From NCBI GenBank assembly GCA_965178125.1, contig OZ237747.1, positions 620,001-684,000 of the forward strand: a stretch of 64,000 nt of DNA, read 5' to 3'. A program made the position numbers and the translations under genes. The notes under the pieces are model-generated. The model did no database searches and was not told the DNA's origin. It saw only the letters and a list, made by a program, of their open reading frames with translations. Below are positions 1 to 64,000 of this stretch, in pieces. The DNA comes from Bilabrum cf. latius (taxonomy: Eukaryota). Every line of letters starts with the position of its first letter. Position 1 is the first letter of the stretch.

Positions 1-3000
1 TCTGCAATTCGATCGAGATCTCGCGTTCCTGCAAAGCCCGGGCGTTTCGAGCCTTGCCGAATCGCGGCTTTGGTAGCTTTGCGATCGCATCTCGGGCCCT
101 GGCTGCAGCCCTGACGGCTTTGACCGCGCCTGGGTCGGGCACGGGGCATCGCTCAAGCCTTGTAGCCACATCCTCCGAACCGGATTGCACGAAAACAGGA
201 ACCGAGGGCAGCTCCGTTTCCGCTACCACTGCGCCGCTCGGGCCATCGTCGCAGCGCTGCAAGGTCCTGGACCCATTGGGTGCCGTCACAATCCAGAAGC
301 CCCCAGTACCGCTGCTTGCCGCGGGCTCAGAGCCCGGTGCAGCGCTATCTGGCAGCCACCAGCTTGTCGCTCCGGACCGGTAGAGCACGCATCGTAGGCC
401 ACCAGCGAACGAACGGACGCACGTGTTCCCGCTACCCTGCAAAGGGAAGCGCACGGACGTCTCCACAAGCCACTAGGGCCACCGGCACGACCTTGCGTCA
501 ACAGCCTAGGACAGCTCAGGGGATGGCTGCGCTGCCGCCTCGGCCGCATGCTCCATGGCTCTTGCCGTTTGCTTGCGGCCGATCACAGACCGCAGGGTGC
601 TTTCCAAGGCCTCGCCGCGCCGAGCCGCGAGCAAGTGCTGTTGCAGGCGCTGCCGAGCGGTCAGACTAGATGCATCTGCGACCGACCGGGGTACCCACGC
701 GATGCTCCCATTCGCATCCATGTGTATGCGACAGCCGCCGCCGTACTGCAGAGACAGGTCCCAGCTGCCATCTGCCCTCCGTCTCGTGCTGGGCGTCTTG
801 CCAGACGCCTTGACGCGCCCAAGGAAGTCCCTTCGGCTTGCTTGGCTGCTCACAGACAGCAGTGCCGGCGGCCTGCCGAGCCCCATGGTTGCCCCTGCCG
901 GCGCCCTGGCTATCGCAGCCAGCTCGATTTCGCCGCGCAACCGTCGGCCGGGGTGCTGGCTGTAAGTGCGCCTGATGGCGTGTTCCGTCTCGAGAGTGCC
1001 GGCCTCGCCGTCGCCGGGCCTGAACAGCGTCAGCTATGTCCTGTTTTCACTGTCCCTGACACCGGGGCTTGTGCCGCCCTGGCTGTTTCTGCGACGGAAT
1101 CCGAGCACACCGAAGGGGGCGCTCATGGTTACATTGCGGCCGATGAGCCCGCCTTGCCTGCCCTCGGTGCATTCGATCTGCACGCTTCCTGCAGCGTGCA
1201 TCCGCCACTGCTGCTGCTCCAAGCCCTAGATTGCCTCGGATGGCAGAGATGACACCAGCAAGCAGGCCGGCGACGGATTTGATGCCTCGGGCGTCGCGGG
1301 TCCACGACTGCGAGCACTCTCGCTTGGCTCACCGCTGGCTACTGAAGGTCGCACGCGCTGCCACACAAGAGCCTCGAGAACACGCTTGTACTGCTCAGCA
1401 GCAGCTGCCAGCCTCTTCTCAAGCTCTGGGTCAGTCTTCTCTGCAACCGCCTTGCCCTTTCCTTTGCCTTTCCCCTTTCCTTTAGGTTTGTCAGCCTCTG
1501 CCCTTTCCTGCAGCTCCGCAGCACCGGGCAGCCCGGCAGCTTCATTTGCATCCTCCTTGGCCTTAGCAGCAGCCTCCAGCAATGCATCCACTCCCTCTAT
1601 GGATCCAAGCTGCTACAGAAATACTCTGTCTTGCTCTAACGTCTCTTGCGCAAACGCGCTCGCGGATGTAGCCATGCCTCGAAGGAGAACAGCGGAACTG
1701 CCGGGACCGCCGCGCCTTTCCACGCGGGCGCGTGGCACCGGCTTGTTCGCTACCACAATCGCGCTGCCGGTCAGCGGCTCGCGACCCACATCGATTCGCC
1801 ATCCCTGCGATCTCAGCGCCGCGATCTCCGACAGTACCCCCCTGCGGGTCAGCCTACGTCGGTGGGACCGGAGGCACAGAGGCACCTGAAAGGCAGGCGC
1901 ATCCTTCGCAGCCTTGGCCTGGTGCGCTACCTGCCGCGCAGCAGCTGCGTTGGCGTCGAGTGGGATGATGCCCCACGGCCGAATCCTCCGGGGCCCCATT
2001 GGAACGGACACCATCGTTGAGGCTGGAGTGACCTGGAGAGATTCCACGGACTAGGCGGGCCACGCGATGGCTGTGGCAGCCGCATGGGCGATGGCTGCAG
2101 CCTCGCTCTCTGCCTCGGGGTCCTGCGCGGCAACCTCGTCGTCCTCAATGGCCACCATGCCAGACTACTCTTCTGACACACCTATTGTCCAGCCGTCTAG
2201 AGCACCAAATGCGCCCTCCCGCAGCGAGCTAGCCTAGCCCGCGAACTTCACTAGGTCTGCTGCAGCCCCTACCAAAGCCTACTCGAGAGCTCTGGCGCTC
2301 AGCCGCGGCGCTAGAGCAGTCAGCTCATTCCGCCTCACTTGCATCTCACCCTATCTCGGCAAAATCACTGCTGCAAGTTCACTTCCACTGCTCTTGCTCC
2401 CACCTACATCGCTTGTTTCGTCCTCCACCCCGGGCACCGAAGTAGCCTATATAGTAGCGGCAAACCCGACAGCAACGGCAAGCTCCATGGCTGCAGTCGC
2501 ACCACCGTCTTTGGCAGCCTGTGCCACCGCGGCGTGCATATTTCGGGCCCGAGTAGAGGGCTCTGACCCGGGCACGGAGCATGCGGCTTCCAGCACCGCT
2601 GTTTCTGCGTGCAGGAGTGCGTGGGTCTGGGCAGCAGTCCCGCCCATCCTCTTGGCCCTCGTGAGAGGTGTATCTGCAGCGCCGACCACCGCGGCGCCAT
2701 GCACAGTCGGCACACTTGCAGACATAGCCTGCAATTGCGTTGGAAGTAGCGAACCTCCTGTTCGGCCAGCTCCAGCCGCTGTTTCTTCCGCACTCTGCAA
2801 AGCAGCATCGAGCGCGGCTGTCATCGTCCCAAAGCCGGACCCTTTACCATGCAAGGAGGTGGTATTTCTCGCAGTGTGTAAGCCACTCTGTTCCTCTAGG
2901 TCGACCTCTTCAGAAATTCCGTCAGCCTCAGCCGCTGCAGCACCGAGAAGAGCTCCTAGGAAGGCCGCTGGCGAGCAGCTGGCCGCTCCCAGAGGCATCG

Positions 3001-4849
3001 CATCGAGCCGACAGTCGAGGCGACGTCGCATCCTCGCCACATGGCTGCCCCCACTCGAGTCAGGGACCACTATCACTGGTAGGGCGGCTCCTGCAGCCCT
3101 ACTGTCCGTGCGGTTTCCACCTCTGGCCTCCACATCACTGGGTGCCTCGTTTGCGGGTACCTGCTGGCTTGCGATCCGCCCCAGTCGCTCGTCCCAAAGC
3201 TATGCCTGGGAGAGAACCTGGCCAAAGCAGCGGGATAGGCTGCAGCTGACTGCCGCCAGTGCCCGTGCCGCCAGTCCGACCTGGTCATCAAGCTGCTCCA
3301 CGGCTTCGTGCGAGCTGTACAGACCCACGATCGCGTCGCACACGGCAGGTGACAAGGGCAGCCTGGCGTGCACGACGGATCCGCAAGGACCCAAGGCCGA
3401 AGCGGGATCATCATTGCCAGCTGCAGGCCCCAATATTGATTCTACGACGGCCTTTGCGGCTGAATTGCCACTCGCAGCTCCTGCGAGAGTCTCCCAAACC
3501 CACTCTCCGCCTGCAGCAGAGAGCAGCTGGACACGCCTTGCTTCCTCCTACAATGCCGCTTGCTGCGCCTGCCTAGCAAGTTCTTCGGGGTCTGACCCTT
3601 TGCCTTTCTTCCCCTTGGCCTTAACCTTGTCTTTTCCCTTCCCTTTGTCCTTACCCTTCCCCTTGGCAGCCTATTCCTCGACTTCGTCTGCTGACTACTC
3701 CTGGGCCGTTTCAGGCTCAACAGCTGGCGTGCCGATTGAGACCACACCACGCACTGCTACTGCAGTCAAGCTTGCCTGGGCTTTCTCAGTATGGGCCTGT
3801 TCTTCTTTCAGTGCAGCTTCGCACGCTTCCTGGATCCATTCATCTTCTTCCTGCAGATCAACGAGCCAAGGGGTAGCCTCACCGGCACCAGCTCCAGATG
3901 CAGCCTCTTGTGCAGCATCAGCACCACCGTCCTAGGCCTGTCGAGTTTCTCCTGTGAACGAACGGGACGGAAGGCCAATGCCCTGTGGCAGTGCCAAGAA
4001 CCCAGCGACGGCCGGCGACACGCCCCTCGAAGGCACCTGCATGGCCGGCTCGGCGCTCCCACAAGCAGCCCCGGGCACCATTGCCGCACGCGCCTCCTGC
4101 GGTGTCCTGGGCCAGCCTACTAAAATGATTGTCGGTGCATCAATTGATTGGACTGATTGTCTGGCTATTGATGCGGCTTCAGTGGATAGCACGGCAGCAT
4201 CAACGCTGCGCTGCGTTGCGAGCGGGTCGTCGGTCTCCCCACCCTTGCCCTTCTTCGGCTTTGGCTTGCCCTTTCCTTTGGTCTTTGACTTGTCTTTGCC
4301 CTTGCCCTTCTGTGCACTAGCAATTGCGTCGCTTTCGGTCTCAAACTTGGGTGCAAGCGCTGGATCACAGCCGTGCAGCGCGTGGGCAGCTCGTCGACGA
4401 AACGCAGCGGCCAACTCGTCTACAACAGGCATGTCAATAGCCTCCGAGCTGCTCTCATCAACACCGCTGACGGCATGAGATGCTAAGCGCTGCTAGATCA
4501 TGCGCCTAGCATCGCACTCTAGCTGCTCCCTGCTAATGCAGATGTAGCCTCGAGAACCCTTTGACTGGGCGTAACTGATAGCCGACTACGTCCAAGCTTC
4601 CTCGCTGGCATTTAGTTGATTATCGGCAGAATCTTGAAGCTGCGCTGTCTTGGCCACTTCAGAATACAGTCGCAGCACAGCCTTGCTTCGAGCTTCAGTG
4701 TCGATTTCGTGCGGCTCAGACCCAGGAGGTACGGAAGACTGCCCGATCAAAACGATATGAGGCATCGAACTTGAACAATCAAACAGTCGGTAAATAGGGT
4801 CGTGCAAATCCTGGGTAATCCCCTGCCCACGCTTGATACCATCGGCCAT
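1..4849 (-). CDS. Large SPAG17/PF6-like (flagellar central-pair) protein, runs off the left edge; single frame read through at least 15 TAG codons
   Basis: Minus ORFs 4586-4849, 3932-4432, 3200-3433, 2447-3133, 1613-2047, 1226-1591, 1034-1222 and 506-940 share one frame and are separated only by TAG. KGKGK tracts, 'IILVGWPRTPQEA' and 'VRSFAGGLRCVLYRSG...FWIVTAPNGSR' resemble SPAG17 segments as I recall them. The family call is tentative. Confidence 0.5.
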
Positions 4850-4961
4850 TGCCCAACGGATTCAGGCGCTAAATATGCACGCAACAATCAACACATCCGT
4901 TCGCCTCTCCGTTGCCGCCTAGCACCAGCACGTGCGCGGGGAACAGCGTGTGTACCACACT

Positions 4962-6029: not shown

Positions 6030-8205
6030 TCAGCCAGGTGCATGCCCCAGCGCCGCCAGCCGAGCCTCCAGCTCCCTCACTCGACCATTGCATGCTTGCA
6101 CTTGATCCTGATATGATTTCACTTGAGCCTCGGCTGCAACACGCTGCTCGGTCTGCGACTCGATCCAGGCCTGCTCCTCGTCCCCCAGCACAGCCCCATG
6201 CTCCTGAAGCACCTTCACACACTCCCTGTGTTTACCCAGCATTGCGGCATGCAGTGGGGACACCAGCTTGCCACCAGAGACTGGCCCCTTCCTCTCCAGC
6301 CCGCCCGCCAGCTTGCCCAGCCCCAGCCGCTTGCCCAGCTCTAGTGGCTTGCCAGTGGCTGCAGCATTGAACACGAGAGCAGCGTCTCTCTGCGCGATGG
6401 CTGCCTGCCTCCATGCAGCTAACTAATGCGCTCTGAGGCTGAACCGCTCTACCAGGCGGACCGTGGCTGTATGCCGTCGCTACCCGGGGATGTATTGTAC
6501 TGTTAGTGGCAGCCGTGCAGGCACCTTACCTGCGTTGTTCTTGATCTCTTTACTTGCGCCTGCATGAAGCAGCAATCTAGCGCATTCGAGTCGTCCATAC
6601 TCAACGGCAGCATGAAGCGGGGTGCTTCCACCATGGCTTCGGACATTGACACCTGCACCAGCCCCGATCAACACTCGCGCGCACTCCAACTGACCGCACT
6701 CACAGGCCAGATACAGAGGCGATGCTCCCCACACATTCAATGCATCCACAGTTGCCCCGGCCTCCACAAGCTCACGCACGCAGTCCACATGCCCGTTCTG
6801 GCCTGCAATATGCAGCGGCACATACCCGCCCGCCATGGCAGCGTTCACATTGCCGCCAGCCCCGATCAACACTCGCGCGCACTCCAACTGACCGCACTCA
6901 CAGGCCAGATACAAAGGCGATGCTCCCTTCGCATTCAATGCATCCACAGTCGCCCCGGCCTCCACAAGCACGCGCACGCAGTCCACATGCCCTTTCTGGC
7001 TTGCTGCATGCAGCGGCACATGCCCGCCCTCCGTGGCAGCGTTCACATTGCCGCCAGCCCCGATCAACACTCGCGCGCATGCCAACTGACCGTACTCACA
7101 GGCCAGATACAAAGGCGATGCTCCCTTCGCAGACCTCGCATCCACACTTGCCCCGGCCTCCACAAGCTCACGCACGCAGTCCACATGCCCTATCTGGCTT
7201 GCTGCATGCAGTGGCACATGCCCGCCCTCCGTGGCAGCGTTCACATTGCCGCCAGCCCCGATCAACACTCGCGCACACTCCAACTGACCGCACTCACAGG
7301 CGATGTACAGAGGCGATGCTCCCTTCGCAGTCCTCGCATCCACAGTCGCCCCGGCCTCCACAAGCTCACGCACGCAGTCCACATGCCCTTTCTGGCCTGC
7401 TGCATGCAGCGGCACATGCCCGCCCTCCGTGGCAGTGTTCACATTGCCGCCAGCCCCGATCAACACTCGCGCGCACTCCAACTGACCGTACTGACAGGCC
7501 AGATACAAAGGCGATGCTCCCTTCGCAGTCCTCGCATCCACAGTCGCCCCGGCCTCCACAAGCTCACGCACGCAGTCCACATGCCCTTTCTGGCCTGCAA
7601 TATGCAGCGGCACAAACCCGCCCTCCGTGGCAGCGTTCACATTGCCGCCAGCCCCGATCAACACTCGCGCGCACTCCAACTGACCGTACTCACAGGCCAG
7701 ATACAGAGGCGATCCTCCCTTCGCATTCATCGCATCCACAGTTGCCCCGGCCTACACAAGCACGCGCACGCAGTCCACATGCCCGTTCTGGCCTGCAGCA
7801 TGTAGCGGCACGAATCCACCTGCTTTTGCTGCATTCACGTCAGCACCAGCGCCAACCACCTGATCTAAGCAGTCAGCATGACCATTCCTCGCAAAGCAGT
7901 ACACAGGAGTCTCTTGATTCCTGTTCCTCTTGTTGATATCCACGCCAGCCTTCAACAAACACTCTACCATCGAAGCATTCCCGCTACCAGCTGCATATGG
8001 TTTGCGGAGCCCAACAGAAAGGAAAGCTTGCAAGCAGTTCGCAAAGGCTCTAACATATCCTGGTCGTGCGAGTACTCTTACCCGCAACATGGAGCAAAGT
8101 ATTTCCGTCAACCTAGCTTTGAGAAGCAAGGCTCGGTTGCTAGTCGAGGAGTTCCAATACCTTGCGGTGATCCCCACATTTCACTGCATCGGTGATGGCG
8201 TCCAT
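6030..8205 (-). CDS. Ankyrin-repeat protein with C-terminal coiled coil, copy A
   Basis: MDAITDAVKCGDHRKVLELLD*QPSLASQS*VDGNTLLHVA, one GT-AG intron (~7990-8080), then tandem 198-nt units (2x33-aa ankyrin repeats, SPLYLAC/VPLHAA). Reads through TAG at 7752, 6480 and 6423 and ends ...LGHAPG-TGA. Confidence 0.88.
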
Positions 8206-10016: not shown

Positions 10017-12189
10017 TCAGCCAGGTGCATGCCCCAACGCCGCCAGCCGAGCCTCCAGCTCCCTCACTCGATCATTGCATGCTTGCACTTGATCCTGATA
10101 TGATTTCACTTGAGCCTCGGCTGCAACACGCCGCTCGGTCTGCGACTCGATCCAGGCCTGCTCCTCGTCCCCCAGCACAGCCCCATGCTCCTGAAGCACC
10201 TTCACGCACTCCCTGTGTTTACCCAGCATGGCTGCATGCAGCGGCGACACCAGCTTGCCACCAGAGACTGGCCCCTTCCTCTCCAGCCCGCCCGCCAGCT
10301 TGCCCAGCCCCAGCCGCTTGCCCAGCTCTAGTGGCCTGCCAGTGGCTGCAGCATTGAACACGAGAGCAGCGTCTCTCTGCGCGATGGCTGCCTGCCTCCA
10401 TGCCGCTAACTAATGCGCCCTGAGGCTGAACCGCTCTACCAGGCGGACCGTGGCTCTGACCTGTTCAACAATAATGAATCGGCGTGTTGGCAGCAGCTGT
10501 GCAGGCACTTTACCTGCGTCGTTTTTGATCTCTTTGCTTGCGCCTGCATTCAACAGCACTCTAGCGCATTCGAGTCGCCCGTTCGTAACGGCAGCATGAA
10601 GCGGGGTGCTTCCACCATGGCTGCGGACATGGACACCTGCACCAGCCCCGATCAACACTTGCGCGCACTCCAACTGACCGTGCTGACAGGCCAGATACAG
10701 AGGCGATGATCCCTTCGCAGTCCTCGCATCCACAGTTGCCCCGGCCTCCACAAGCTCACGCACGCAGTCCACATGCCCTTTCTGGCCTGCAATATGCAGC
10801 GGCACATACCCGCCCTCCGTGGCAGCGTTCACATTGCCGCCAGCCCCGAGCAACACTCGCGCGCACTCCAACTGACCGTGCTGACAGGCCAGATACAGAG
10901 GCGATCCTCCCTTCGCAGACCCCGCATCCACAGTCGCCCCGGCCTCCACAAGCTCACGCACGCAGTCCACATGCCCGTTCTTGACTGCAATATGCAGCGG
11001 CACATACCCGCCCTCCGTGGCAGCGTTCACATTGCCGCCAGCCCCGAGCAACACTCGCGCGCACTCCAACTGACCGTGCTGACAGGCCAGGAACAAAGGC
11101 GATCCTCCCTTCGCAGTCCTCGCATCCACAGTTGCCCCGGCCTCCACAAGCACACGCACGCAGTCCACATGCCCTTTCCTGACTGCAATATGCAGCGGCA
11201 CATACCTGCCCTCCATGGCAGCGTTCACATTGCCGCCAGCCTCTAGCAACACTTGCGCGCATGCCAACTGACCGCACTGACAGGCGATGTACAAAGGCGA
11301 TGCTCCCTACGCAGTCCTCGCATCCACAGTCGCCCCGGCCTCCACAAGCACACGCACGCAGTCCACATGCCCGTTCTCGCCTGCTGCATGCAGCGGCACA
11401 TACCTGCCCTCCATGGCAGCGTTCACATTGCCGCCAGCCCCTATCAACACTTGCGCGCATGCCATCTGACCGTGCTCACAGGCCAGATACAGAGGCGATG
11501 CTCCCTTCGCAGTCCTCGCATCCACAGTCGCCCCGGCCTCCACAAGCACACGCACGCAGTCCACATGCCCGTTCTGGCTTGCTGCATGCAGCGGCACAAA
11601 CCCGCCCTCCGTGGCAGCGTTCACATTGCCGCCAGCCCCGAGCAACACTCGCGCGCACTCCAACTGACCGTGCTGACAGGCCGCATACAGAGGTGATGCT
11701 CCGTCCGCAGTCCTCGCATCCACAGTCGCCCCGGCCTCCACAAGCACACGCACGCAGTCCACATGCCCGTTCTGGCCTGCTGCATGCAGCGGCACGGATC
11801 CAAATGCTTTTGCTGCATCCACGTCGGCACCAGCGCCAACCACCTGATCTAAGCAGTCAGCATGACCATTCTTCGCAAAGCAGTACACAGGAGTCTCTTG
11901 ATTCCTGTTCCTCTTGTTGATATCCACGCTAGCCTTCAACAAACACTCTACCATCGAAGCATTCCCGCTTACAGCTGCATATGATTTGCGGAGCCCAACA
12001 GAAAGGAAAGCATGCAAGCAGTTCACAAAGGCTCTAACATATCCTGCTCGTGCGAGTAGTCTTACCCGCAACATGGAGCAAAGTATTTCCGTCAACCTAG
12101 CTTTGACAAGCAAGGCTCGGTTGCTAGTCGAGGAGTTCCAATACCTTGCGGTGATCCCCACATTTCACTGCATCGGTGATGGCGTCCAT
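10017..12189 (-). CDS. Ankyrin-repeat protein with C-terminal coiled coil, copy B
   Basis: Near-identical structure to copy A. In-frame TAG at 11307 and 10410 plus two in exon 1; ends TGA. Confidence 0.88.
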
Positions 12190-18600: not shown

Positions 18601-18638
18601 AGCGCGTAAACGCACGACACATGTAAACGTACTCCCAT
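12687..18638 (-). CDS. NRF (nose-resistant-to-fluoxetine) domain / acyltransferase-3-like membrane protein, ~1,983 aa, intronless, 14 in-frame TAG
   Basis: Signal peptide MGVRLHVSCVYALAILVCSLILGGTV*A-ETSS; NRF-like 'DLGNYDRC...YCVL...GVCMPMAC'; 'LF*LAPWTRLP'; C-terminal 'YISAARPVWGLG...GGG...LGRL...VQAP'. ORFs 17376-18401, 16854-17345, 15915-16664, 14808-15896 and 12687-14291 share one frame; ends TGA. Confidence 0.75.
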
Positions 18639-19692: not shown

Positions 19693-19830
19693 AACGACTG
19701 CCTCAAGATCCCAGCGTTGCCTTCGCTTCGTCACGGCTAACGACTGCCTCAAGATCCCAGCGTTGCCTTCGCTTCGTCACGGCTAACGACTGCCTCAAGA
19801 TCCCAGCGTTGCTTTCGCTTCGTCACGGCT
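19693..19830. repeat. Three tandem copies of a 46-bp unit
   Basis: (AA)CGACTGCCTCAAGATCCCAGCGTTGCCTTCGCTTCGTCACGGCT starting at 19695, 19741 and 19787, with no spacers. Confidence 0.95.
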
Positions 19831-42200: not shown

Positions 42201-42284
42201 GCCAAGGCGGGCGGCAGCGCTGAGCCTGTGTCGGATGGAACTTCGGTGGGTGGCGCCGGGAAGGCGTTCGAGCAGGATGCCTGA
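27256..42284 (+). CDS. Giant (~4,800 aa) cell-surface protein: signal peptide, DCGG Cys motif, TSP-C/lectin-like and sushi-like domains, multiple cadherin repeats, multiple IPT/TIG repeats, Cys-rich region, multi-TM C-terminus
   Basis: Exons 27256-27304, 27439-27480, 27802-29110 and 29246-42284 (GT-AG introns). Splicing gives SCTNNRKDTSEYGVDCGGSC. Cadherin motifs LDFE, DxNExP and ATDPD; IPT motifs 'GxNFGP' and 'YxPP'. All main plus-strand ORFs from 27762 to 42131 share one frame, joined by 26 TAG; ends TGA 42282-42284. Confidence 0.88.
33984..34075 (+). repeat. Coding minisatellite, ~4.5 x 21 bp (DSGDQEQ), inside the cadherin region
   Basis: GACAGYGGAGAYCAASAGCAG units in frame. Confidence 0.85.
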
Positions 42285-50900: not shown

Positions 50901-51758
50901 TGGCATGTCAGCACGGTCAGATGGCATGCGCGCGAGTGTTGATAGGGGCTGGCTGCAATGTGAACGCTGCCATGGAGGATGGGTATGTGCCGCTGCATGC
51001 AGCAGGCCAGAAAGGGCATGCGGACTGCGTGCGTGTGCTTGTGTAGGCCGGCGCGACAGTGGATGCGAGGATTGCGGACGGAGCATCGCCTCTGTATCTG
51101 GCATGTCAGCACGGTCAGATGGCATGCGCGCGAGTGTTGGTAGAGGCGGGGTCGAATGTCAACGCCCAAGGCCAAGGCGGCAACACACCGCTTCATGCTG
51201 CCGTTGAGTGTGGACGACTCGAATGCGCTAGAGTGCTGCTTCATGCAGGCGCAAGTAAAGAGATCAAGAACGACGCAGGTAAAGTGCCTGCACGGCTGCT
51301 GCCAACACGCCGATTAATTATTGTTGAACAGGTCAGTGCCACAGTCCGCCTGGTAGAGCGCTTCAGCCTCAGAGCGCATTAGCTGGCGGCATGGAGGCAG
51401 GCAGCCATCGCGCAGAGAGATGCTGCTCTCGTGTTTAATGCTGCAGCCACTGGCAGGCCACTAGAGCTGGGCAAGCGGCTGGGGCTGGGCAAGCTGGCGG
51501 GCGGGCTGGAGAGGAAGGGGCCAGTCTCTGGTGGCAAGCTGGTGTCTCCGCTGCATGCAGCCATGCTGGGTCAACACAGGGAGTGTGTGAAGGTGCTGCA
51601 GGAGTATGGGGCTTTGCTGGGGGACGAGGAGCAGGCCTGGATCGAGCGGCTTGTTGCGGCATAGACGTAGGTGAAATCGTATCAGGATCGAGTGCGGGAG
51701 CTGGAGGCTCGGCTGGCGGCGTTGGGGCATGCACCTGGCTGATGCAAGACTACCAGAT
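47938..51758 (+). repeat. Inverted dispersed third copy of the ~4 kb ankyrin module
   Basis: Reverse complement of ~9860 down through the acyltransferase 3' fragment (48325-49129), spacer and ankyrin gene. The 3' flank matches 10001-10020. Confidence 0.9.
49603..51742 (+). CDS. Ankyrin-repeat protein with C-terminal coiled coil, copy C
   Basis: ATG 49603; TAG at 49666 and 49693 within a canonical first ankyrin repeat; intron 49727-49817; TAG at 51044, 51380, 51662 and 51668; ends LGHAPG-TGA. Confidence 0.88.
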
Positions 51759-51861: not shown

Positions 51862-53919
51862 ATGGGGAAAATACGAGGATCTTTATATGCTGCGACGAAG
51901 CCCGCTTCGAATCTGCTTCAGCTGGTTCATGGCATGCTTTTCGACTGGTAGTACTTCGGATGGACGATGGCAGCTTTGCTGGCATTTGAAGCGATTGTTT
52001 CAGCGGTTATCATTTTGAAGGTACCATGTAAGATAATTTGTATTATTCGTGATGGGTTCTCTGTTGCTTCGTACACTGCAGCGGGAACAGTTTTGGATTG
52101 TACGCTCTTTGAACCTGCGCAGATACCGAGATCGACTGGAAGGCCTACATGCAAGAAGTAGAAGGCGTATTTGTGCAAGTAAGTCGAACTAGTTGCAGAA
52201 TACTTTGAACGACCTACATCATGCTACATTATGTCTGCTCTGACCGCGATCCACAATTCACTGCAGGGCGACTTCGACTACTTGAACCTGCGAGGGGATA
52301 CCGGGCCGCTCGTGTATCCAGGTTTCTTTGTCTGGTTTTATGGATTGCTTTGGAAAATAACTGACAACGGGACCAACATAGCTCGGGCGCAGTGGATCTT
52401 CTGGGGGATTTACCTGGTGTTCCAGTTCGTGGTGCTGTCCGTGTACAAGAAGACGCGCCCGCACGCGCCATGGCTAGCCGTCATTCTGTGCCTCAGCAAG
52501 CGCATGCACTCTATATTTGTGCTTCGCCTCTTCAACGACCCAGTGGCCATGCTGTTCGCGCACGGCGCTGTATGGTGCTTCTCCAGCCACCGCTGGCTGG
52601 TTGGCTCGCTGCTGTACTCGCTAGGGGTCGGCATGAAAATGAACGTCCTGCTGTTCGCCCCGGCGCTGCTCCTCCTGTTCCTGCGTAACACGGGCATCTG
52701 GGGAACTTTCTTGAACCTCTCTGTGTGTGCGGGGGTGCAGATCATCGTAGGTGCGCCCTTTTTGGCGACCTACCCGGTGAGCTACCTCAAGAAAGCGTTC
52801 GAGCTCTCGAGGGTTTTTTTCTACAAGTGGACCGTAAACTTCAGGTTCCTGCCCGAAAACATCTTTGTTTCCAAGCAGCTGGCACTCCTACTGCTTGCGC
52901 TGCACCTGGGCGTGCTGGCGGTGGTGATTGCTTCGTGGACCTGGAGGCTCGTGAGGGCGAGCGAGCACCTAGCGGTGGCTGCAACCGACGATGATTCGGA
53001 ATCAAAGAAGAGGTCGTTATCCGGCGGGGGGCGATCCGCCTTATCTCTCGAGCTGGCCGTCGGCAAGGTGTCGCCGAGATTGCCATCGGGACCCACCTCT
53101 GCGCTCCTCCCCCAAGCAGGTGGCAGCTCGAGCTCGAGCTCGTGGTTCGGTTGGATGCTGGCGCCCTCTCCCGCGCTGAGCGCGCACTCATTCGACGCAT
53201 TGGCAGCTGCTTCTGACCGCGGTGGGGCTGCCCCATTGGCGGTCGCCCTGCGTGCATCAGAAGCTGACCTGAAGTCAATCGAGAAGGGCCTGTGCAAGGA
53301 CTCGCCGCTGTTCATCGCTGCATTGCTGTACGCCAGCAACCTCGTTGGCGTGGCCTTCGCGCGCACGCTGCACTACCAGTTCTACTCATGGTACGTGTCT
53401 AGCGTGCCCCTGCTGCTCGGTGCATCGGGCGCACCGGCATACGTAGTTGTGGTCGCCTCCGGTTTGCTCGAACTGGCTTTCCTGACGTTCCCCTCGACGA
53501 GCGAGAGCTCCATTGCCTTGCACCTGGGACACCTGCTCGTGCTGGGCGCAGTGCTGAGCGCCGATGCAGGTTCCTTTGCCCTGCCATGGTCATGGGGAGT
53601 GCCTAGACGATTGGCGGGCGACAGGGCAAGGGCTGGTCAAGATGAATCTGGCTCGAGCGGTGGAGGTGTGGGTGTGTGGCTCCTTGCTTGCATTGGGTGG
53701 ATCGACGGCGTGCTGCGAGGGTTGGGTGCGGGTACTGGTGCGGCATGGGAGGCCGGGGAGGGGCAGGAGGGGTGGTTGCTGCGGGTGTCGGGCAAGGAAC
53801 ATGGCGGTGAGGAAGGAGGTGCGCCTGAGGTAGAGGGAGCCAAAGCGGCCTCCAAGGGCCGGGGTCCAAGCCGGTCAGGTGGGAGGGGCAGACAGGGGAA
53901 GGCTGGCAGCAGGGGGTGA
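51862..53919 (+). CDS. ALG3: Dol-P-Man:Man5GlcNAc2-PP-Dol alpha-1,3-mannosyltransferase
   Basis: Introns 52028-52122 and 52179-52266 give KVPYTEIDWKAYMQEV...LRGDTGPLVYP; SKRMHSIFVLRLFND, KWTVNFRF and ARTLHYQFYSWY are present. One TAG (51949) in the N-terminus; ends TGA. Confidence 0.92.
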
Positions 53920-54058: not shown

Positions 54059-55159
54059 TCAAGGCCTCATGGTAGCCGCCACCGCTAGTGCTGCAGATAC
54101 ACCCGCTGCCAATCCGAGCGTTCTGGCGAGGCTTGACTCGCGCTAACTCGCCCCGCTTCCGAACAGGACGAACGGGTGCGGCGACGCGGCGGCCTCCTCA
54201 GTTCCCTTGCTGCCCCCCTCCTGCTCCTCCTGCTCCTCTTCTCCTCCCGCTTCCTCTTGCTCCTCCTCCTCGGGGCCCCCTTCGGCATTGTGCCCGGTGG
54301 AGCCCACCTGGCTCTCCTGCTCGCTGCCCTACTCAGCGGCAATGGCACCCGCCGAAAGACTGGCCTATGCCTTGGACGTCCCCTTCCTATCGGCGGACTA
54401 CTCTTTGCTCGCTTCACTCCCGGGAGCGTCGCTGGCCTCCTCCTTGGTATCATCGTTCTTGGATTCGTCATTCTTCTTGCCGTCCTTTGACGCCTAATCT
54501 TCCGCATCTAACGCCTGACTACCACCGATGGCTGTGCCTGCAGCCTTCATCGTCTCGTAGCTGTCCATGACTTTGCCTCCGACAACTGCAGCAGCCGAAC
54601 TGGATGCCTGGTCGCTCTCAGCAGCTTGAGGGTCAACAACCCCCGCGGGTTTGGACGCAGCATCCTGCTATGCTTGTGCACGAACCCGTTTCGCTTCAGA
54701 CTCTTCTACTACAAGCGTTCCACTGCCGTCGCCGTCGCCATTCGCGCTCGGTCGAAGCTAGCCGTGCACAACTGCCGCTTTGCCATCGCCATGAGCCCCA
54801 GTCACGATGACGTCCACATCCTGAGGTTTTTTGCTAGGTGATACGTCCGATTGGCCCGAGCCTGCAATCGCATCTGCAAGTGTGGCGTGGGTGTCGGCCT
54901 TCTTGCTCTCTGAAGTACCAGTAGAACTGTCCAGCGCTGCCTCGGCCTTGTCGAGGCGGTCCGATAGGGATTTTACCAAATTATACTTCGCATCTGAAAG
55001 AACTCCTGCTACCTCGGGCTTCTTGGAGCCATCCAGTGCAGTTCCCGCTTCTATGGATGGCCTTAGGGCGGCAGACCCCGATTTGTGCGAGACTCTCGCA
55101 TGAAGTGCGGCGTCACCCAGGCCCAAAATAGAAGCCATGACAAGTATATTGAATAGCAT
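54059..55159 (-). CDS. Secreted acidic low-complexity protein with hydrophobic C-terminus (possible GPI anchor), ~366 aa
   Basis: Signal peptide MLFNILVMASILGLGDA; frame continues through 7 TAG to ...RTLGLAAGVSAALAVAATMRP-TGA. Confidence 0.65.
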
Positions 55160-55321: not shown

Positions 55322-58300
55322 ATGAGCAGCTCAACACTTCGTAGCAGAATGAACAACTTGCAGGACTCCAAGCTGCAAGTAGCGGCACCCAGCAGCCAAT
55401 CAATCGAGCACGAAGAGTTCGGTCCGAACCGGCACGCCCCAGAGCAGTACAGGGTCTCCCTATGCGACACCCGAGTTGCCGTCTCGAGCCGGGTGGCCCA
55501 GGCAGCAGTGGCATACCCATGCGTGAGAGTAGGATTCCGTGGGCGCAAACTGAACAAAATAGACTGTTCATGCATGCCTCGCGCATGGCACGCTTCGCCA
55601 AGCCGCTTGGAATGGCTTGCAGCACCCCTTCTGCTCCCATCGCCGCTGCGGGTTTGCCTGCGGCTATGCTGCCGTGCTGCCCATGCAGGCCCTGCGCACG
55701 CCCCACTGCACGCTCCCGCGTCTACTCGCCCCGTCCCCTTTAAGTTGCAGTGCATAGTATTATCCGTGCTGGGATTCTTCATCTTCTGCATGGTGGTCCT
55801 GGTGGCCACAGGACAGGCAGCGTTCTCCCAGGTCTCCGACTACGACCTCATGCTGAGAGACAAAGGTGAGCAGCATTCTGAAAATCGAGTTGGGAAGCGC
55901 GTTCATTGTACTGTTTATGCTCACATGCCGCTGCATGTACTCGTGACTGTCGCTTGATCTGCTTGGATCTGACATGCGATGCGCGTGCACACGGCCAGCA
56001 CTCACTGGCACCGTTTGGGCTCGGCAACCAGTGCCGAGACCTCTTTTCCGCACCTACTGCCCGTTCGCCCGTTCTTTACAAGGAAACCAACACCGCAGCT
56101 GATGTGCAACAGATGCAGGCGGTTGACCGAGCGATCGCCCAGCTTACTGGCGGCGACGGAGGAGCAGTGCTGGAACAGCCCCAGCAAACTGCGGACCCCG
56201 TCTCACTGGACGTGCTGCTGCTTGCCAAGGGCAGCGGCAGCGACGTGCTGCTCGATGGTAACAAGCGCAGGGAAATTGCAGCGGCGATTGCATCTTTGAT
56301 CCTGGATGCAGACTTTCCCAGAACCTGCCACGTTCTCAACTCCACCACTGGAGTATGCTCCGCGCCTCTGTCCCCCTTCATGCTCGACTACGACGCAAGG
56401 ACCCTACCAGATGATATCGTAGCCTTAGACTAGGATCCGCAAGTCGCGTGGGCCGGCGGAACTTCCCCTGTGCCAAGGGTACGTCTGGCATCCAGCCCGG
56501 TGCCAGGGAGCAGCCTGCTCGGCCCCGACACGAACGCAAGCACAGCAAGGCAGATCCTGTTCCGGTACGCCAACCCCGAGGAGGCTGCCTCCAGGGGCAT
56601 GATCCTCGAGGCAGAGGTGCCGCTCTACTCGTCCCTCCGCACTCTCTTCTTCGACCGTGATTTTGGCCGGGTGCTGGAGGAGGGCGAGGGCGAGCTAGAG
56701 GAGCAGCGGGCCAGGGGAGAGGACTACGGCGTGTCGCTGAAATCGCGCTTTCTGCGGCTGAGGATGGCGCAGGGTATGCCGCTCGAAGGGTTTGCGAACG
56801 AGGAGGACCGCCCCAGGGAGCAGCAGCTCGAATGGGGCGAGCTGATGGGGGAGACGGCAGACGAGACAAACATGGATCGCTTCAAGCAGGACCCAGCTCC
56901 AGAGGGAGTCGAGCTGGTCCTCTTCAGCGGAGCGATCATGGAGCGCGAGTTTGAGCGCCGCGCCATCGAGGACATGTATTGGGCGGGCGCCTCCATGCTC
57001 TTCGTGTTCCTGTACACGTGGTTCCATACGGGGTCCATCGTGCTGGCAGCTGCCGGTCTCTTCATCATCTTCAGCGCAATGCCCATCGGGATCTTTATCT
57101 ACAGGCTGGTGTTCCAGATCCCGTACGTCTAGACGCTTCACGGCATGAGCATCTTCATCCTGCTGGGCCTCTCGGCAGATGCGGTCTTCCTGGTGCAGGA
57201 CTCGTACCAGCAGGCCCCTGATGTCACTCCCGCAAAGATCTACCAGATTCTCTTCCGCATGGACCAGGAGGCGTGGGCAACCGGTGGTGCATCACCCGAG
57301 CAAGCCCACGGCAGCAACAGAGCTAGTATCCCGTCGAGGCAGGGCAGCCAAGGCGCCAAACGAGCAGACGATGACAGCTTTACCGAACGGGACGAGATAG
57401 CAGACGCCCGTCAATCGCGCGCAGAAGAAGAGGCCCTCGTTGCTCGCATTGCATACACGTGGAGCCGGGCCTCTACCAGCCTTACCGTCACCACGCTGAC
57501 CACCATCGTGGCCTTCCTCGCCACGGCCGGCTCGAGGATCATGCCGGTGTCAACCTTCGGGATCTTCGCTGCCACGATCGTGTTCGCCAACTACTGCCTG
57601 GCGCTGTCTCTATACCCCGCTGCCATCGTGCTATGGGAGCAAAACATGCGCCCGTGCGAGGCAGCCTGCGCTCGCGTGCTGTGCGGTTGCTGCTGCGCTG
57701 GCGCAAGCTCACAAGAGGCAGCAGAGCTGCAAACGTCGGGCTCCGTCGACAGCATCCCCAGCGCTAATGCTAGCAGCACAGTGGTCTCCCAGTCGCCCAT
57801 GCAGTCTTCCAGCGGTATCACGACTGCAAGCAGCAGGGAACAGCAGAAGGAGAGACAGGGCCAGGAGCCCCAATCGCTGCCGATGCCGGGCTAGCAGGCA
57901 GGGCTGTTTCTTCTGAGCACGAGTGAGAAAGATGGGCATGCGGAGCCCAAAGTAGAGCGGCCCATCGAAATCTTCTTCCGGGACTACTGGAGCGAGTGGA
58001 TCTATGTGGCTCGGTTCCCCATCCTCGCCGCGTTTGCCGTGCTGCTGGGCGTGTTTGCCTATTTGGCCACGCAGCTGGAACCGCTGACCCAGCAGGAGCA
58101 GTGGTTCCCCGAGAGCTTTTATGCCGGTGCAGCGCTGGCTTGGCTCGACGATGAGTTCCAAGTCACCGAGCGAGACAGCACGGTGGAAGCTGACATCACC
58201 TGGGGAGTCGCTGGCATCAACCGAGACGGGACCAGCAGGTACAAGCCCGCCAACCCAGGGCGCGCCGAGTGGGACGAGTCATTCGACATGTCTTCCCCAG

Positions 58301-59623
58301 CGGCACAGCAGGCCATTTTGGACACGTGCTTCCTCGCCCCCGCTGCTCTGGGCCGCGTGCCCAAGAACGAGGAGCTGCCATTATACAAGGCCAACGTGTC
58401 GTGCTTCATGCAGGACTACGCCGACTGGCTCAGGGACGAGCAGGGGATCAGCTTCCCATTCGTGGCATCGGACACGAGTGGTGCAGCAACTGCAGAGCAA
58501 TAGCGCGATCAGTTCATGAGTTCACTGCAGACATTCACCACGTCGTCGACTCGGGGCAAACAGCTTCGAGCTACGCATCGCATCGGCTTCAACGCGGATG
58601 GGCAGCTGCGCATGGCCCAGGTTGCAATTAGCCTCAACCTGTTACACTTTGAGCCGTACGACATCAACAAGCCCATTCGAGACAGGATGCAGGCATTTGT
58701 TGACGCGCGGAATGCCGTGTCACCACCTGGTGTTGATGGGGCAATCCAAACGGCTGGAGTGGCGTGGGGCTGGATGCATACCGAGCGGGAGCTGCTGCGC
58801 ACCGCCCTCCAAGGCATTGGCATATCGCTAGCCGTAGCCACGTTGGTGCTGGTCTTTTCCACAACCAACGTGATCGTCGGGGGACTGGCGGCACTGTCCA
58901 TGGGTGGGATCCTGGTGGTGGTGCTGGGCACATTCAGCGCCCTCGGTTGGCAGATGGGGCTTACCGAGAGCATCGGGTCCATCATCCTGCTGGGCTTCAG
59001 CGTGGACTACACGGTGCACAGCGCGGTGCACTTCGTCACCTCGAACAAGCCCAAGGCTCACCTCCGCGTCAAGGACTCACTGAGGGACATGGGCGTGTCT
59101 ATCGTGGCTGGCGCAATCACCACGGGTGGCGCAGGCCTGTTCTTGTGGGGTGGAATCATCATCTTCTTCACCAAAGTGAGTCGCCTGTGTGTTTTTGCAT
59201 GTCTGGGAACCGCTTGATCCACCGAGAGCCTCTCGTTCACGTCGAGCGGTAGCAGCTACCCTCACGTGTTGATTGATGCTGTTGCGCACGTCTTGACCCG
59301 CCCTTCCTTGCATTTCCCGCTCCTCGCAGTTTGCCACCACTCTCACGGTCGCAATAGCCGTGTCTTTGCTGTTCTCGCTTGCCTTCCTACCGGCTGCACT
59401 CTGCGTCCTGGGTCCGGACGGTGACACTGGCAGTATATTGCCGGCGATGCAGGCACTCGGGCTGGGATTCTTGTGTGGGCTGCACAGCGAAATTGACAGC
59501 GACAAGGGTCGACGTGGCCGTAGAAGCGGAGCAGTCGCTGTGGTCGGAGCCGAAGCACAGAATGACGCGCCCGTGCAGGGACAGTCGCCCCGCACGAGTA
59601 CTACTGCTGCAGCGGCTGTGTGA
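55322..59623 (+). CDS. Dispatched/Patched (RND, sterol-sensing domain) family membrane protein
   Basis: 'IFILLGLSADAVFL', 'TTLTTIVAFLA...IMPVSTFGIF' and 'GFSVDYTVH...GAITT'. TAG at 56431, 57130, 57892 and 58501; intron 59176-59329; ends TGA. The 5' exon structure (~55500-56080) is unresolved. Confidence 0.85.
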
Positions 59624-59790
59624 CGGGTACCTGCAGGACAGGGTACGCGGCTTGACCAGGGCTAGTGGACGATGCGTTGAACCCGGCAATTCAAACGTTC
59701 GTGTGACAAATAAAAAGCAATGTCCGTCTCGTGTGTCTCACATGCAATATCGAGTCGTACAGGGTACATGCAGCGCGGTGTACCTCACAA

Positions 59791-61059
59791 TCACAACCGC
59801 TTTTGCGTGCCTGTCTCATGCACCCTGCCCCTTCCTTCGCTCTCCTCTGACGTCGTCTAGTCCACCCAGTCGTCCTGGTGCACGCCGCAATCAAATAGGC
59901 TCTCGTCCTCGTCCCCTACCCTTGGAAGATGAATGAAAGCGTCAGTGCCGTAGCCTTCCATCGATACGATGTTCAAGTCGCCTCCGAAATATCGAGCGTA
60001 CAGCCTGGACAGAGGCAGGCCGTACCCAAGGCCGGCCATGGGCGTGGAGGTGCTGAAGTCTCCCCCCTCCATCACCCGGTCCAGCACACTGCCCTCCTTC
60101 TCGTCTTGTGCCCAGGTCGTGTAGAAGTACGAAAACATGCGAGAGACCCCCTTCCTGTGGATGCCCCCGCCCTCGTCGGCCACCTTGATCACGATGTCTT
60201 CGTTCTCTGGCCCCGCTGCCACGATGATTCTCACGGGAGGCATAGTGGAGAAGTCCTCTCCGTGCCTCTCCCACACTGCCCGCAGCGAGTTCTTGACCAG
60301 CTCGAACACGATGAGCCTCAGGTGCGAGGGGATGTAGCTGAACCGGAACTCTTCGTCGCCAATGATTTGCACCTCTGGCACGTCCCCGAACTCTCTCTCA
60401 GCCATGTACTGGGCGTCTTCTGCCGCCATCCTGCACACTTGGACTGGCGATAGCTTCGTGTTAATAATGCCGACGTAGCCCTCCATCACGTCGTGCAGGG
60501 CCAGGTGCTGCTCGATCAGGGTACGAATGCCTATCCGTGCGGAGAAGAATGCATCTAGAAACTTGTGAACCCTCTTTTCCATGTGCTGAGGCATGCCGTC
60601 CGACCGGGGGTCCGCGTATCCCTGCTCCCTCCTAAACTGCTAGATCCCAGCTGCCATGGTGACCAGGGTGGAATTGTGGCGCTCGTATATCGACTGTATC
60701 AGCTCCTTGACCTTAGCTTCGTCTTCTATGGATACGGGGGCATCACACTCCCTCAATTCCTTGAAGCTGGAGCGGTACCAAGCAGCAACCTGATGCACGC
60801 TCTGCGTTTCGCTGAGCCCGAACGGGAGGCTCTCTAGCTCAACTATTCGATGTGCGAATCGAATCGGCAGCTCCTTGTGTAAAAACTGAGCGGCACGCAA
60901 CAAAGTCAAACCTCGCTTCTCTTCCACATGTTTCGGGTCCGTTGGCAAAGGCTGCGCGCCGTCTGCCACCCCTGTCTGTCCGAACACCTCTAGCATTCGC
61001 AAGGATATGCTGGATTGCTTGACTTTGCTTGCCTGCCAAATATCTCGATCTAAATCGTC
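59791..61059 (-). CDS. Mitochondrial pyruvate dehydrogenase kinase / BCKD kinase family protein (upstream exons unresolved, probably up to ~61400)
   Basis: AQFLHKELPIRFAHRI, RIGIRTLIEQH, FELVKNSLRA, KVADEGGG, AGLGYGLPLSRLYARYFGG and EGYGTDA. TAG at 60640 (AGI*QF) and 59857; first TGA at 59791; acceptor CTGCAG at 61060-61065. Confidence 0.9.
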
Positions 61060-61977
61060 CTGCAGTGAAGGGCTTACGGCTGAGACGCGGCAATGTGGGA
61101 ATCGCTGATGATCGCAGCACGCGGCAAGCTTCGAAACGGAGCAGTATGCGAGAACACTTGGCACTGTGAGCCCGTGCCCAAGTGTATACCAAAATTATGA
61201 TGCCCAAACCAAACAAAGCTTTTATAATTTCCCGAGGGACGCTCTTATGTCTCAAAGCATGGTTCTGCTAACTACAATCGACGACAGTCAACCAGCAATC
61301 AAGCACGAGCTCACCGATGAAGTCCAGGCTGATGCACTAGCTCTTCTCATCCCCACCTGCCTGCGACGCAAACATGTTGAAATCAATCTCCTTGACACTG
61401 TCCTCGATACCAAATTCTACATCTAATCTTTAAAAGTGGGCGAGTGACTGGAAGATAGTTCTGCCGGTAGGGTGAAGGTTCGTCAATCCGGACTGGAGCC
61501 GCCGAACTTCGAGCGGGAAATCTGGCCGAGAACACCATGTCATATGTTTCCGTTTTTCTAGATGAATTCTACACCGATTGAAGTTCCAAAAAGTGCATCT
61601 TGTTTCGGAAATCTTTGAGTATGTGACTAGTAACCTTGACGTGAAGTTAGTGCTCTGTGCACCCCAAAAATCGGTGGCTCATCAATCCGGAACGCTGCAA
61701 CTACACCACGAGCAATGAGTTCGGTATTTTGCCGCCGCGCACATGCTGTTGCTGAAGTGTTAGCTTTATGGTGTGGTAAATATCTTTCGATGGCTGGCAT
61801 GCTAAGAACGGATATCATCGCGGAATGGCGAGTCCGGCCACGATTCGGACCGCTGTGCCGAACTGCAACTTGTCGATTTACTCTCGGAAAAATTAGGTAT
61901 AGGCAAAGAGAACCGCATGATTGGGATAAAACAAAGTTTTAAATCATGCTTCTAGTTGCTTGGAAAAAATAGCGAGC

Positions 61978-64000
61978 TCAGGAGCTTCCACCTGTGGCCT
62001 CATCTTCGATCTGCAGCGGGCGTGGCTTCTGCTCGCTGGCAGCTGCCCGGGCCTTCTCCAGTTCATCACATGCAGATGATGCGGTCGCCGAGACAGACTC
62101 CATCATGCTTATTTGGTCCGTCAGAGCCATGAAAGCGTTGTCATTATCTTCCTCGGTTGCATCCTTGGAACTGGTGACCTCCATAAAGGTACCGAGAGCC
62201 CCAACGACCTTGCCAACTGAGGCAAGCACGGATCGCGTGGCTCCAATTGAAGTACCTGCAGCTGCAATCATAGCTGATACCTTTGTCTTTGCCCACGTGT
62301 CCAGCTGCTTTGAGTTCCAGTACACGCGCGTGTCCTGCGGTCGCCCTTGCCGCTCCTGCTCCAGGGGGTCTCGGCGGCCCCCCGGCTGGGTGGATCGCAG
62401 GCGTTTGGTAGCTCGCTCCACTGCATCGTTCTTGACCTTCTCGAACTGCTCCCCCGCATGTTTCTTTCCCCTCGACGACGCAATCAAAGTCTGCTTCCCG
62501 ATGTCTGACCCATCCATGGCTTCTAGGACTTTTCCGCTCTCCTCCTCGCGTGCCTCCCAGTGCCTCTGCGCCGGCTGGCGCTTCCTCTTCCGACCCAGCT
62601 TCATGTGTTCTTCACGGCCCTTACACTCCGCAATGCGCTTCTTGATGTTAATTTCATGCAGAGGGGTGTCTGAATCGTAGTCCCACAGGCCGCAGTGCGC
62701 GAAGCCACTGTGTACGACATGCCCGGCGGGCTTGTCCCCACTTGGTCGCAAGATGTTGGCGAGGGCGTACGCCACTGCCCTTGGCGTCCAGTCCTTGTTC
62801 GTGTACGTGGTCACCAGCTTTCGAAACTCTGTCTTGAGCGGCTTGAATACCGAAACGTCCTCTACCTGCAGTTCTGCCTGCCGAGGAGTGAGGGGGGATC
62901 GTCACAATGATGAGGCGGTGGGCAAAGGCCCAGGCGATGGTGTCCAAGTCGTAATGTGCCGAGTGTCCGTCTGTGATTAGGATGGACCATTCGTTTGCCT
63001 ACCGCCCCTAGTGGTTGTCAAGATTCCACACCAACTTCTCGATGAAGTCGCGCCAGAGCTTGCTGTTGATGAACGCCTTGGGTGACGAGCGGAGGAGGTC
63101 GCGCCCATGCCGGAGCACCTCCGGGTCCTTCTTGGAGATCTCGCTCACAGTGGGAGGGGGAATGGCGTCACGGTGTTTGCCCTTTGTGATGTAGATGCTA
63201 CACACATGCTTGCCGTCTGCATCCAACGCACACAGCAGCGTGGTGGTGTGCCTCGTTCCGTACTCGACGGCGTTGCAATCCTTGGCAGTTGGCCTCCAAG
63301 CGCTAGCCTCGGGGTGATTTGATGCTCCCCCGGAAGCAGCCGAGCTACTGCTTGATGATGATGAAGATGATGGAGCCCCTGTTGAGACAAGACCTGCTGT
63401 AACTGCAGCACAGCACTGGAACCCGGACTCATTGCACACGACCACTTGACGGCGCAGTTGGATCTTGAACGTCTTGAATAGGCGGCGCAGGATGGCGAAC
63501 AGCTCCCTGACGCTGCTAGCCCTAACTAGGAATCGTTCTGGCTAGTAGTTCTCATTACGCCGCGCAGAAATCTTGAACCGCTTCTTGAATCCCTTGAGCC
63601 AGCCACGACACAGCTTGTCGTACTTGCGACGGGGGAACGCTTTCTTCATATACAGGTCTTGCCAATAGTTAGCGAAAGAAATGATGAAGTCTGGATGTGG
63701 ATGAACACCTGATCTATTCAGCTCCGAAATGAGAAGCTCCAGCTATTCCTCTGCTTCCCTAGGCAATGTCGGATTTGAACCGCCTCTCGCACCGACCGTT
63801 TGTCCGGCTGCTGCCTTCTTCACCCAGTCAGAGGCAGTCGAAGATGGAATGTCCAGACCCCGTGCTTTCAGATGGGATAGAGCATCCTATTGACTATTCA
63901 TCTGGCTCAAAACCAGGATAAAAAGCTCGAATTTGGCGCTTTTTTGGGCGTCGCTTGGGAACCACTTGGGGTTCCATCGCCACCTCGCACGCGCGTTTAC
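61978..64000 (-). mobile_element. Pogo/Fot-like (Tc1-mariner superfamily, CENP-B HTH + DDE_1) transposase, probably inactivated; runs off the right edge
   Basis: 'GWLKGFKKRF', 'TTLLCALDADG', 'LITDGHSAH' and 'IPPHSS-AELQVEDVSVFKPLK' (35 residues between the 2nd and 3rd Asp). A 4-nt duplication (TGCC x2, 62875-62882) shifts the frame; the first catalytic site reads CNESG. Five in-frame TAG; ends TGA. TIRs not identified. Confidence 0.8.

Follow-up and report, generated by a model that had tools for sequence, protein, structure and literature searches.

A nuclear genetic code in which UAG is probably read as glutamine and UAA and UGA terminate translation, from the genome of a GC-rich, intron-poor eukaryote

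Contig OZ237747.1, between positions 620,001 and 684,000, carries genes on both strands whose reading frames contain the triplet TAG, raising the questions of whether UAG is translated there, which amino acid it encodes, and which codons are left to terminate translation. This whole stretch of 64,000 nucleotides (nt), hereafter the window, has a guanine-plus-cytosine (GC) content of 55-65% and no ambiguous bases (N). Under the standard code, its longest stop-to-stop reading frame, across six frames, is 645 amino acids (aa). Setting TAG to sense yields frames of 4389, 2011, 1879, 1620, 1111 and 936 aa. Setting TAA to sense gains nothing, as the longest frame still has 645 aa; setting TGA to sense gives a maximum of 1518 aa, which is expected, since TGA is the stop triplet that occurs most often in GC-rich DNA. 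With a probability of about 85%, the window is nuclear DNA from a GC-rich, intron-poor eukaryote that reads UAG as glutamine and uses UAA and UGA as its sole terminators, the pattern of NCBI table 15.

Codon counts separate TAG from the other two triplets. The 15,448 codons of 13 coding regions, drawn from both strands, include 87 TAGs but neither a TAA nor a TGA. The two other frames of the same coding DNA contain, per frame, about 106 TAGs, 278 TGAs and 41 TAAs. Thus, the in-frame frequency of TAG matches its off-frame frequency, while TAA and TGA are excluded from the coding frame. An earlier inspection of the letters and open reading frames (ORFs) of the window, here called the sequence-only reading, had reported about 100 in-frame TAGs; the recount arrives at the same figure when the 87 are joined by three in an upstream cadherin exon, one in exon 1 of the ALG3 gene, four in an unnamed ORF and five in a transposase-like ORF. 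Its counts of four TAGs in a kinesin gene and 14 in an ORF labeled as an acyltransferase were reproduced, and an ORF labeled SPAG17-like, for which it gave at least 15, has 18.

The count of 26 TAGs for a cadherin gene holds in part. This gene, encoding a giant cadherin/TIG membrane protein (27891..42284, forward strand; Pfam Cadherin E = 5.4e-50, TIG E = 9.5e-26; TGA stop), has 23 TAGs in its main ORF, and reaches 26 only when a 141 nt intron (29105-29245) is assumed. An in-frame TGA at 29112 splits two cadherin ORFs that share a frame and falls within this candidate intron, in its 5′ splice region; the intron is predicted from its GTACGG..CGCAG ends and from the restoration of the frame; with the intron removed, the predicted protein has 4750 aa, 26 TAGs and one terminal stop. 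As no other in-frame TGA was met, the earlier statement that exons lack in-frame TAA and TGA agrees with the zero counts above. A homolog search with the cadherin protein gave six matches covering about one third of it, four of them from close relatives, whose orthologous fragments are P0121-P0124.

Protein domains continue through the TAGs. In particular, Pfam matches extend over in-frame TAGs in kinesin, cadherin/TIG, pyruvate dehydrogenase kinase (PDK) and the sterol-sensing domain. The kinesin gene (20833..26451, forward strand; Pfam Kinesin E = 2e-86, in two stretches; TAA stop) encodes a long coiled-coil tail and has TAGs at 22003, 23719, 24019 and 24694, the first of which is flanked, within the motor, by NINKSLLAL on one side and FRDSKLTRIL on the other. 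A gene for a Dispatched-like transporter with a sterol-sensing domain (56113..59217, forward strand; Pfam Sterol-sensing E = 7.7e-8; TGA stop) has TAGs at 56431, 57130, 57892 and 58501; its best PDB matches are to Dispatched homolog 1 (E = 3.7e-29), in an alignment that spans residue 417, the position of the TAG at 57130. The sequence-only reading had singled out the TAGs at 22003, 57130 and 60640 as lying where conserved motifs continue. All three are indeed in frame, but the one at 22003 occupies a variable loop between conserved kinesin motifs and belongs to no motif itself.

The genes end in the other two triplets. TGA closes each ORF that runs to a stop, with two exceptions, the kinesin gene and a duplicate of its 3′ end, which both have TAA; no gene in the window ends in TAG, in line with the earlier listing of termini. 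The proposal that UAA and UGA remain stops is further supported by stops at matching positions in a contig from a relative, L001, described below. The usage of the two standard glutamine codons (CAA:CAG = 139:487) predicts about 25 in-frame TAAs if UAA were glutamine as well, and none was found. Co-reassignment of UAA, in which UAA and UAG (UAR) both encode glutamine as in table 6, was rejected: there is no in-frame TAA in the 15,448 codons, no ORF is lengthened by reading TAA as sense, and TAA ends the kinesin gene and three of three genes on L001.

It is very improbable that UAG is ambiguous here, acting as sense within genes and as a terminator near some 3′ ends, in the manner of Condylostoma, the karyorelicts and Blastocrithidia. 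Such codes do exist, according to the available text of PMC5304391, and the gene ends examined number only about 16, none of them TAG, so that occasional UAG termination may occur elsewhere in the genome; this counts against UAA and UGA being the only terminators. Yet no gene in the window needs a TAG end, all stop-reaching ORFs finding a TGA or TAA, and L001 has a TAA at the corresponding end of each of its three genes. The PDK gene (59791..61434, reverse strand; Pfam BCDHK_Adom3 E = 5.9e-42; intron 61059-61313; TAGs at 60640 and 59857) is informative here, as its second TAG lies 21 codons before the TGA stop at 59791, and the sequence beyond it still resembles the C-terminus of a relative's protein.

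Whether the TAGs persist in transcripts was assessed by comparing contigs from four public runs (X3, X5, X6 and X7; three studies) with the window over 52000-64000. Contigs from X5, X6 and X7 are joined at four places where the skipped DNA is bounded by GT..AG, or by CT..AC if the gene is on the minus strand; ALG3 and PDK each have two such joints, and the DNA-like run X3 has none of the four. The joints in the ALG3 gene (51862..53919, forward strand; Pfam ALG3 E = 2.4e-110; introns 52028-52122 and 52179-52266; TAG 51949 in exon 1; TGA stop) were seen in contigs from X5 and X7, and spliced PDK contigs, with no differences from the window, were seen in X5, X6 and X7. Moreover, depth in these three runs varies gene by gene, ranging in X5 from about 5 to 204. 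From the joints and the uneven depth, we infer that the X5-X7 contigs derive from complementary DNA (cDNA); their RNA status is not on record.

At least 12 of the 13 coding TAGs in the compared region lie inside the contig pieces listed from X5-X7, with the TAG unchanged. They comprise all seven in a gene for an acidic protein, both in PDK and, at low depth, three of the four in the Dispatched-like gene; the site not covered among the listed pieces is the Dispatched-like TAG at 58501. Seven variant positions were reported, none of them at a TAG. The acidic protein gene (54059..55159, reverse strand; TGA stop) has the deepest cover in 52000-64000, with contigs from X5, X6 and X7 spanning 53989-55210 with no differences and a depth of 204 in X5. 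Its product, of low complexity and with a hydrophobic segment at each terminus, reaches the Pfam cut-off for no family; with seven TAGs in 367 codons, TAG is not avoided in this deepest-covered gene.

As the spliced contigs retain TAG, the predominant transcripts keep UAG, and neither editing to CAG nor splicing-out, the two routes named in the sequence-only reading, explains the in-frame TAGs. Two considerations pull the other way: run X5 had been classed as probably DNA and the kinds assigned to X5-X7 are guesses, which leaves the cDNA origin a matter of deduction, and contigs lose rare variants, so that a minority of transcripts may be edited.

Relatives of the organism share the TAGs. L001 is a 7.3 kb metagenome contig from a relative and is syntenic with the window: its positions 2098-6787 correspond to window positions 51862-61434, with the ALG3 gene (68% identity), the acidic protein gene (38%) and the PDK gene (82%) in matching order and orientation. 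The Dispatched-like gene, which separates PDK from the acidic protein gene in the window, is absent from L001. The ORFs of L001 lengthen only when TAG is sense, and all three of its genes end in TAA, at positions that match the window. In codon alignments, the window's TAG at 60640 is CAG in L001, the window's CAG at 60886 is TAG in L001, and the TAG at 54758 is TAG in both. Further, predicted proteins from relatives (75-99% identical) break off precisely at TAGs of the window: in its first ORF at site 123 (in two proteins), 310, 837 and 1212, and in PDK at site 446. The coincidence of these predicted ends with TAGs in the window indicates that the TAGs are conserved and that gene callers using the standard code fragment the genes of this clade. 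Because UAG also reads as sense in L001, it is a feature of the clade and not an oddity of one strain; judged from these sequences, the reassignment is common to at least one related species, and hence to at least two species with about 80% protein identity.

Open frames, domain continuity, retention in spliced transcripts and occurrence in a relative together uphold the earlier claim that UAG is a sense codon. That the TAGs are instead untranslated, because the genes are pseudogenes, the assembly is in error, or splicing or RNA editing removes them, is exceedingly improbable, its one point in favor being the stop function of TAG in the standard code. Only one of the three stops appears in frame (87 TAGs against no TAA and no TGA), contigs from four runs and three studies match the window at the TAGs, and the deepest-covered gene of 52000-64000 holds seven. 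Pseudogenes, editing and splicing-out were accordingly rejected on the in-frame pattern restricted to TAG, its retention in spliced contigs and its conservation in relatives.

The identity of the amino acid was examined by tallying one aligned residue per TAG site, taken from the closest ortholog (at least 58% identity) or paralog. Excluded from the tally were the residues that P0129, at 46% identity, shows at five sites (Q, T, E, A and A), secondary repeat alignments, and pairings of acidic-protein TAGs with L001 (38% identical), other than the conserved TAG at 54758. Across 19 sites, the aligned residues are glutamine (Q) at ten, glutamate (E) at six, lysine (K) at two and serine (S) at one; at the 14 ortholog sites alone, they are Q at nine, E at three, K at one and S at one. 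A likelihood based on BLOSUM62 ranks glutamine first and glutamate second, with a gap of 8.5 bits for the 19 sites and 10.8 bits for the 14 ortholog sites. The residues other than Q each have a codon one base away from TAG (GAG, AAG and TCG). The PDK alignment is especially clear: in the column of the window's TAG at 60640, 63 of 118 homologs have Q and none has E, while in the column of L001's own TAG, 73 of 118 have Q and none has E. The predicted proteins P0001 and P0002 also have Q at site 60640. The assignment of UAG to glutamine, made in the sequence-only reading, is therefore the most likely one, with Q at ten of 19 sites and both PDK columns rich in Q.

A reading of UAG as glutamate (or another residue, such as lysine), like the ciliate code in which UAG is glutamate, is improbable and draws its support mainly from three ankyrin-repeat genes. 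Copy 1 (6030..8090, reverse strand; Pfam Ank_2 E = 4e-114; three TAGs), copy 2 (10017..12074, reverse strand; Pfam Ank_2 E = 1.9e-131; two TAGs) and copy 3, an inverted duplicate (49718..51742, forward strand; Pfam match; four TAGs), all end in TGA. The TAG at 6423 is present in all three copies. At 7752, the TAG of copy 1 aligns with GAG in both paralogs; at 11307, the TAG of copy 2 aligns with AAG and AGG; and in copy 3, the TAGs at 51044 and 51662 align with GAG and that at 51668 with CAA. Three of the five copy-specific TAGs are thus aligned with GAG and one with a glutamine codon. The GAG-to-TAG differences at 7752, 51044 and 51662 are independent, two of them at the same ankyrin-repeat position. 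Moreover, relatives have E at three ortholog sites (cadherin 1751 and 2029, and first-ORF 438), and glutamate is second in the likelihood ranking. All of these points weigh against glutamine and keep glutamate as the alternative, one that the sequence-only reading did not raise. On the other side, Q outnumbers E by ten to six across the 19 sites and by nine to three at the 14 ortholog sites, the two conserved PDK columns contain no E, and both codon exchanges within well-aligned PDK sequence are between CAG and TAG. GAG is also the commonest codon counted (771 of 15,448) and lies one base from TAG, so that replacements of glutamate by glutamine are expected, and the ankyrin GAG/TAG pairs are read as such replacements.

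Translation of UAG as glutamine would be carried out by a tRNA-Gln with anticodon CUA, a step modeled on PMC5304391. According to the available text of that source, a single mutation separates tRNA-Gln(CUA) from tRNA-Gln(CUG), and the former pairs with UAG, not with UAA (PMC5304391); since the CUA anticodon alone reads UAG yet ignores UAA, tRNA-Gln(CUA) is the tRNA to be expected (PMC5304391). In addition, the N-domain of the release factor eRF1 would no longer recognize UAG efficiently, through changes in, for example, its GTS motif, as in Iotanema (PMC5304391). The eRF1 of Iotanema carries T32G; NIKS and YxCxxxF are further N-domain motifs in which changes could weaken recognition of UAG. 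A tRNA scan of the window and of contigs L001-L003 found no tRNA genes, which does not favor the proposal, and the window has no eRF1 gene, so that the tRNA(CUA) and eRF1 parts of the mechanism are predictions.

The window contains no ribosomal RNA gene or other standard lineage marker, and its placement was approached through single genes. The closest named sequence to its PDK, at 58% identity and in the cluster of P0004, is from Cafeteria roenbergensis, a bicosoecid stramenopile which we take to use the standard code; its PDK record, as annotated by NCBI, is full-length with 423 aa. In an unrooted IQ-TREE phylogeny of PDK (36 sequences, 359 columns), the window's clade groups with the clade holding Cafeteria (UFBoot 97), apart from oomycetes, ochrophytes, haptophytes and plants. 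An ALG3 tree (37 sequences) does not place the window's clade, whose branch is long and where supports are 22-35, and an Atlas search with ALG3 confirmed the family and gave no lineage signal. No ciliate affinity was found in the PDK or ALG3 match lists. The sequence-only reading's suggestion of a possible stramenopile is therefore supported by the PDK tree, while the ALG3 match list and tree place the window nowhere. The chances are evenly balanced that the organism is a bicosoecid-related stramenopile, as the single PDK gene suggests.

Sequences matching the window occur in public runs filed under several organism labels. Over 52000-61900, at least half of the sampled words were found in runs under three organism labels (A, B and C) from three studies, and the contigs aligned there are mostly at least 99% alike to the window. 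The organism may be a companion of other cultures, or may be filed under several names. Its presence in runs from several studies suggests that it may be cultivable.

The remaining genes and local features of the window are as follows. A long ORF of 1616 codons runs off its left edge (2..4849, reverse strand; 18 in-frame TAGs), and a large multi-pass membrane protein is encoded by an ORF of 1984 codons (12687..18638, reverse strand; 14 TAGs; TGA stop). The respective labels given to them by the sequence-only reading, SPAG17-like and acyltransferase, lack support: the first has no Pfam family, and a PDB search with its last 600 residues found nothing; the second has no Pfam family either, even at E up to 1 for the residues covering 14100-17000. 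A gene for a DUF1168 protein (19795..20646, reverse strand; Pfam PF06658 E = 1.9e-13) has one TAG and a TGA stop, and a gene for a protein with PKD and carboxypeptidase-regulatory domains (43636..46317, forward strand; Pfam CarboxypepD_reg E = 8.6e-13) has five TAGs and a TGA stop.

Several of these genes lie within or beside duplications. A unit of about 4 kb is present in three copies that are 85-97% identical (5803-9862, 9763-13495 and, inverted, 47937-51646), and in each an ankyrin-repeat gene is accompanied by the 3′ portion of the large membrane protein gene; the full membrane protein gene is attached at one copy only (12687-18638). About 525 bases from the end of the kinesin gene, TAA stop included (25939-26463), are duplicated at 42959-43480 with 94.5% identity, just downstream of the cadherin gene. 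The PDK gene has an intron in its 3′ untranslated region (59629-59739), downstream of the TGA stop and outside the bounds given above, and its final exon runs into the 3′ end of the Dispatched-like gene, which points towards it (59028-59740). At the right edge, the region 61468-64000 has a depth of 449-625 in the DNA-like run X3, about four to six times the depth of its neighbors (about 101), and contains a 4 nt length variant at 62874. It looks like a multi-copy mobile element, with transposase-like ORFs (61978..64000, reverse strand; five TAGs) whose Pfam match to DDE_3 (E = 0.0015) is below the cut-off.

This variant of the code has been described before, in several lineages. In the available text of PMC11687900 and PMC5304391, a change of meaning nearly always affects UAA and UAG jointly, and only a handful of lineages are known to have nuclear codes that treat the two differently; those in which UAG alone has gone to glutamine are Iotanema spirale, Protocruzia tuzeti and two phyllopharyngean lineages of ciliates, and UAG-only changes elsewhere go to leucine, serine or glutamate (PMC11687900, PMC5304391). 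The cases of UAG-only reassignment listed in the sequence-only reading agree with these sources as far as they are available. In the literature covered, which excludes subscription journals and supplements, no account was found of UAG being reassigned in the nuclear code of any stramenopile or bicosoecid. The reassignment described here is probably of independent origin, in a lineage without a reported nuclear code change. More tentatively, and with somewhat greater doubt than confidence, it may be the first nuclear code change in stramenopiles, an independent origin of UAG-only-to-glutamine reassignment in GC-rich heterotrophic flagellates related to Cafeteria.

If that is true, and the organism can be cultivated, it could serve as a model in which to study experimentally how UAG is released from its usual coupling to UAA. 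One more case of independent origin, outside the ciliates, in a GC-rich genome and with sequence from a relative, would be a data point for codon-capture theories, to which it is relevant that TGA is the usual stop here and TAA is rare. UAG sites that are conserved, and others that vary, provide material for studying how a code change spreads. As public gene calls of this clade are broken at every TAG, its annotation needs table 15.

The known systems resemble the window to different degrees. Codes with UAR as glutamine (table 6; many ciliates, Hexamita, Streblomastix, ulvophytes and Amoeboaphelidium) likewise read UAG as glutamine (PMC11687900); the window differs from them in that UAA is not a sense codon (0 of 15,448). 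The rhizarian exLh (UAG as leucine), Scotinosphaera (serine) and Oligohymenophorea sp. PL0344 (UAG as glutamate, UAA as lysine) have decoupled UAG from UAA as well (PMC11687900, PMC5304391). Unlike exLh and Scotinosphaera, the window shows leucine at none of 19 sites and serine at one, and, compared with Oligohymenophorea sp. PL0344, its UAG is best read as glutamine, with glutamate as the runner-up. Protocruzia tuzeti and the two phyllopharyngean lineages share both the reassignment and the decoupling of UAA from UAG (PMC11687900). In contrast to these UAG-only ciliates, the window is a 64 kb stretch with multiple genes, spliceosomal introns and about 60% GC; phyllopharyngeans, by comparison, are known for gene-sized macronuclear chromosomes. 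Iotanema spirale, a member of Fornicata, has the same table, with UAG as glutamine and UAA and UGA as stops (PMC5304391). Its evidence comes from a transcriptome, whereas the evidence here comes from a genome and a relative's DNA (PMC5304391). A second difference is that the window's PDK groups with Cafeteria in the tree. The presence of a PDK gene implies a mitochondrial pyruvate dehydrogenase complex, which, to our knowledge, is not expected in an anaerobic fornicate. The mechanism expected for Iotanema would be the same as the one proposed here, a tRNA-Gln(CUA) together with an altered eRF1 (PMC5304391).

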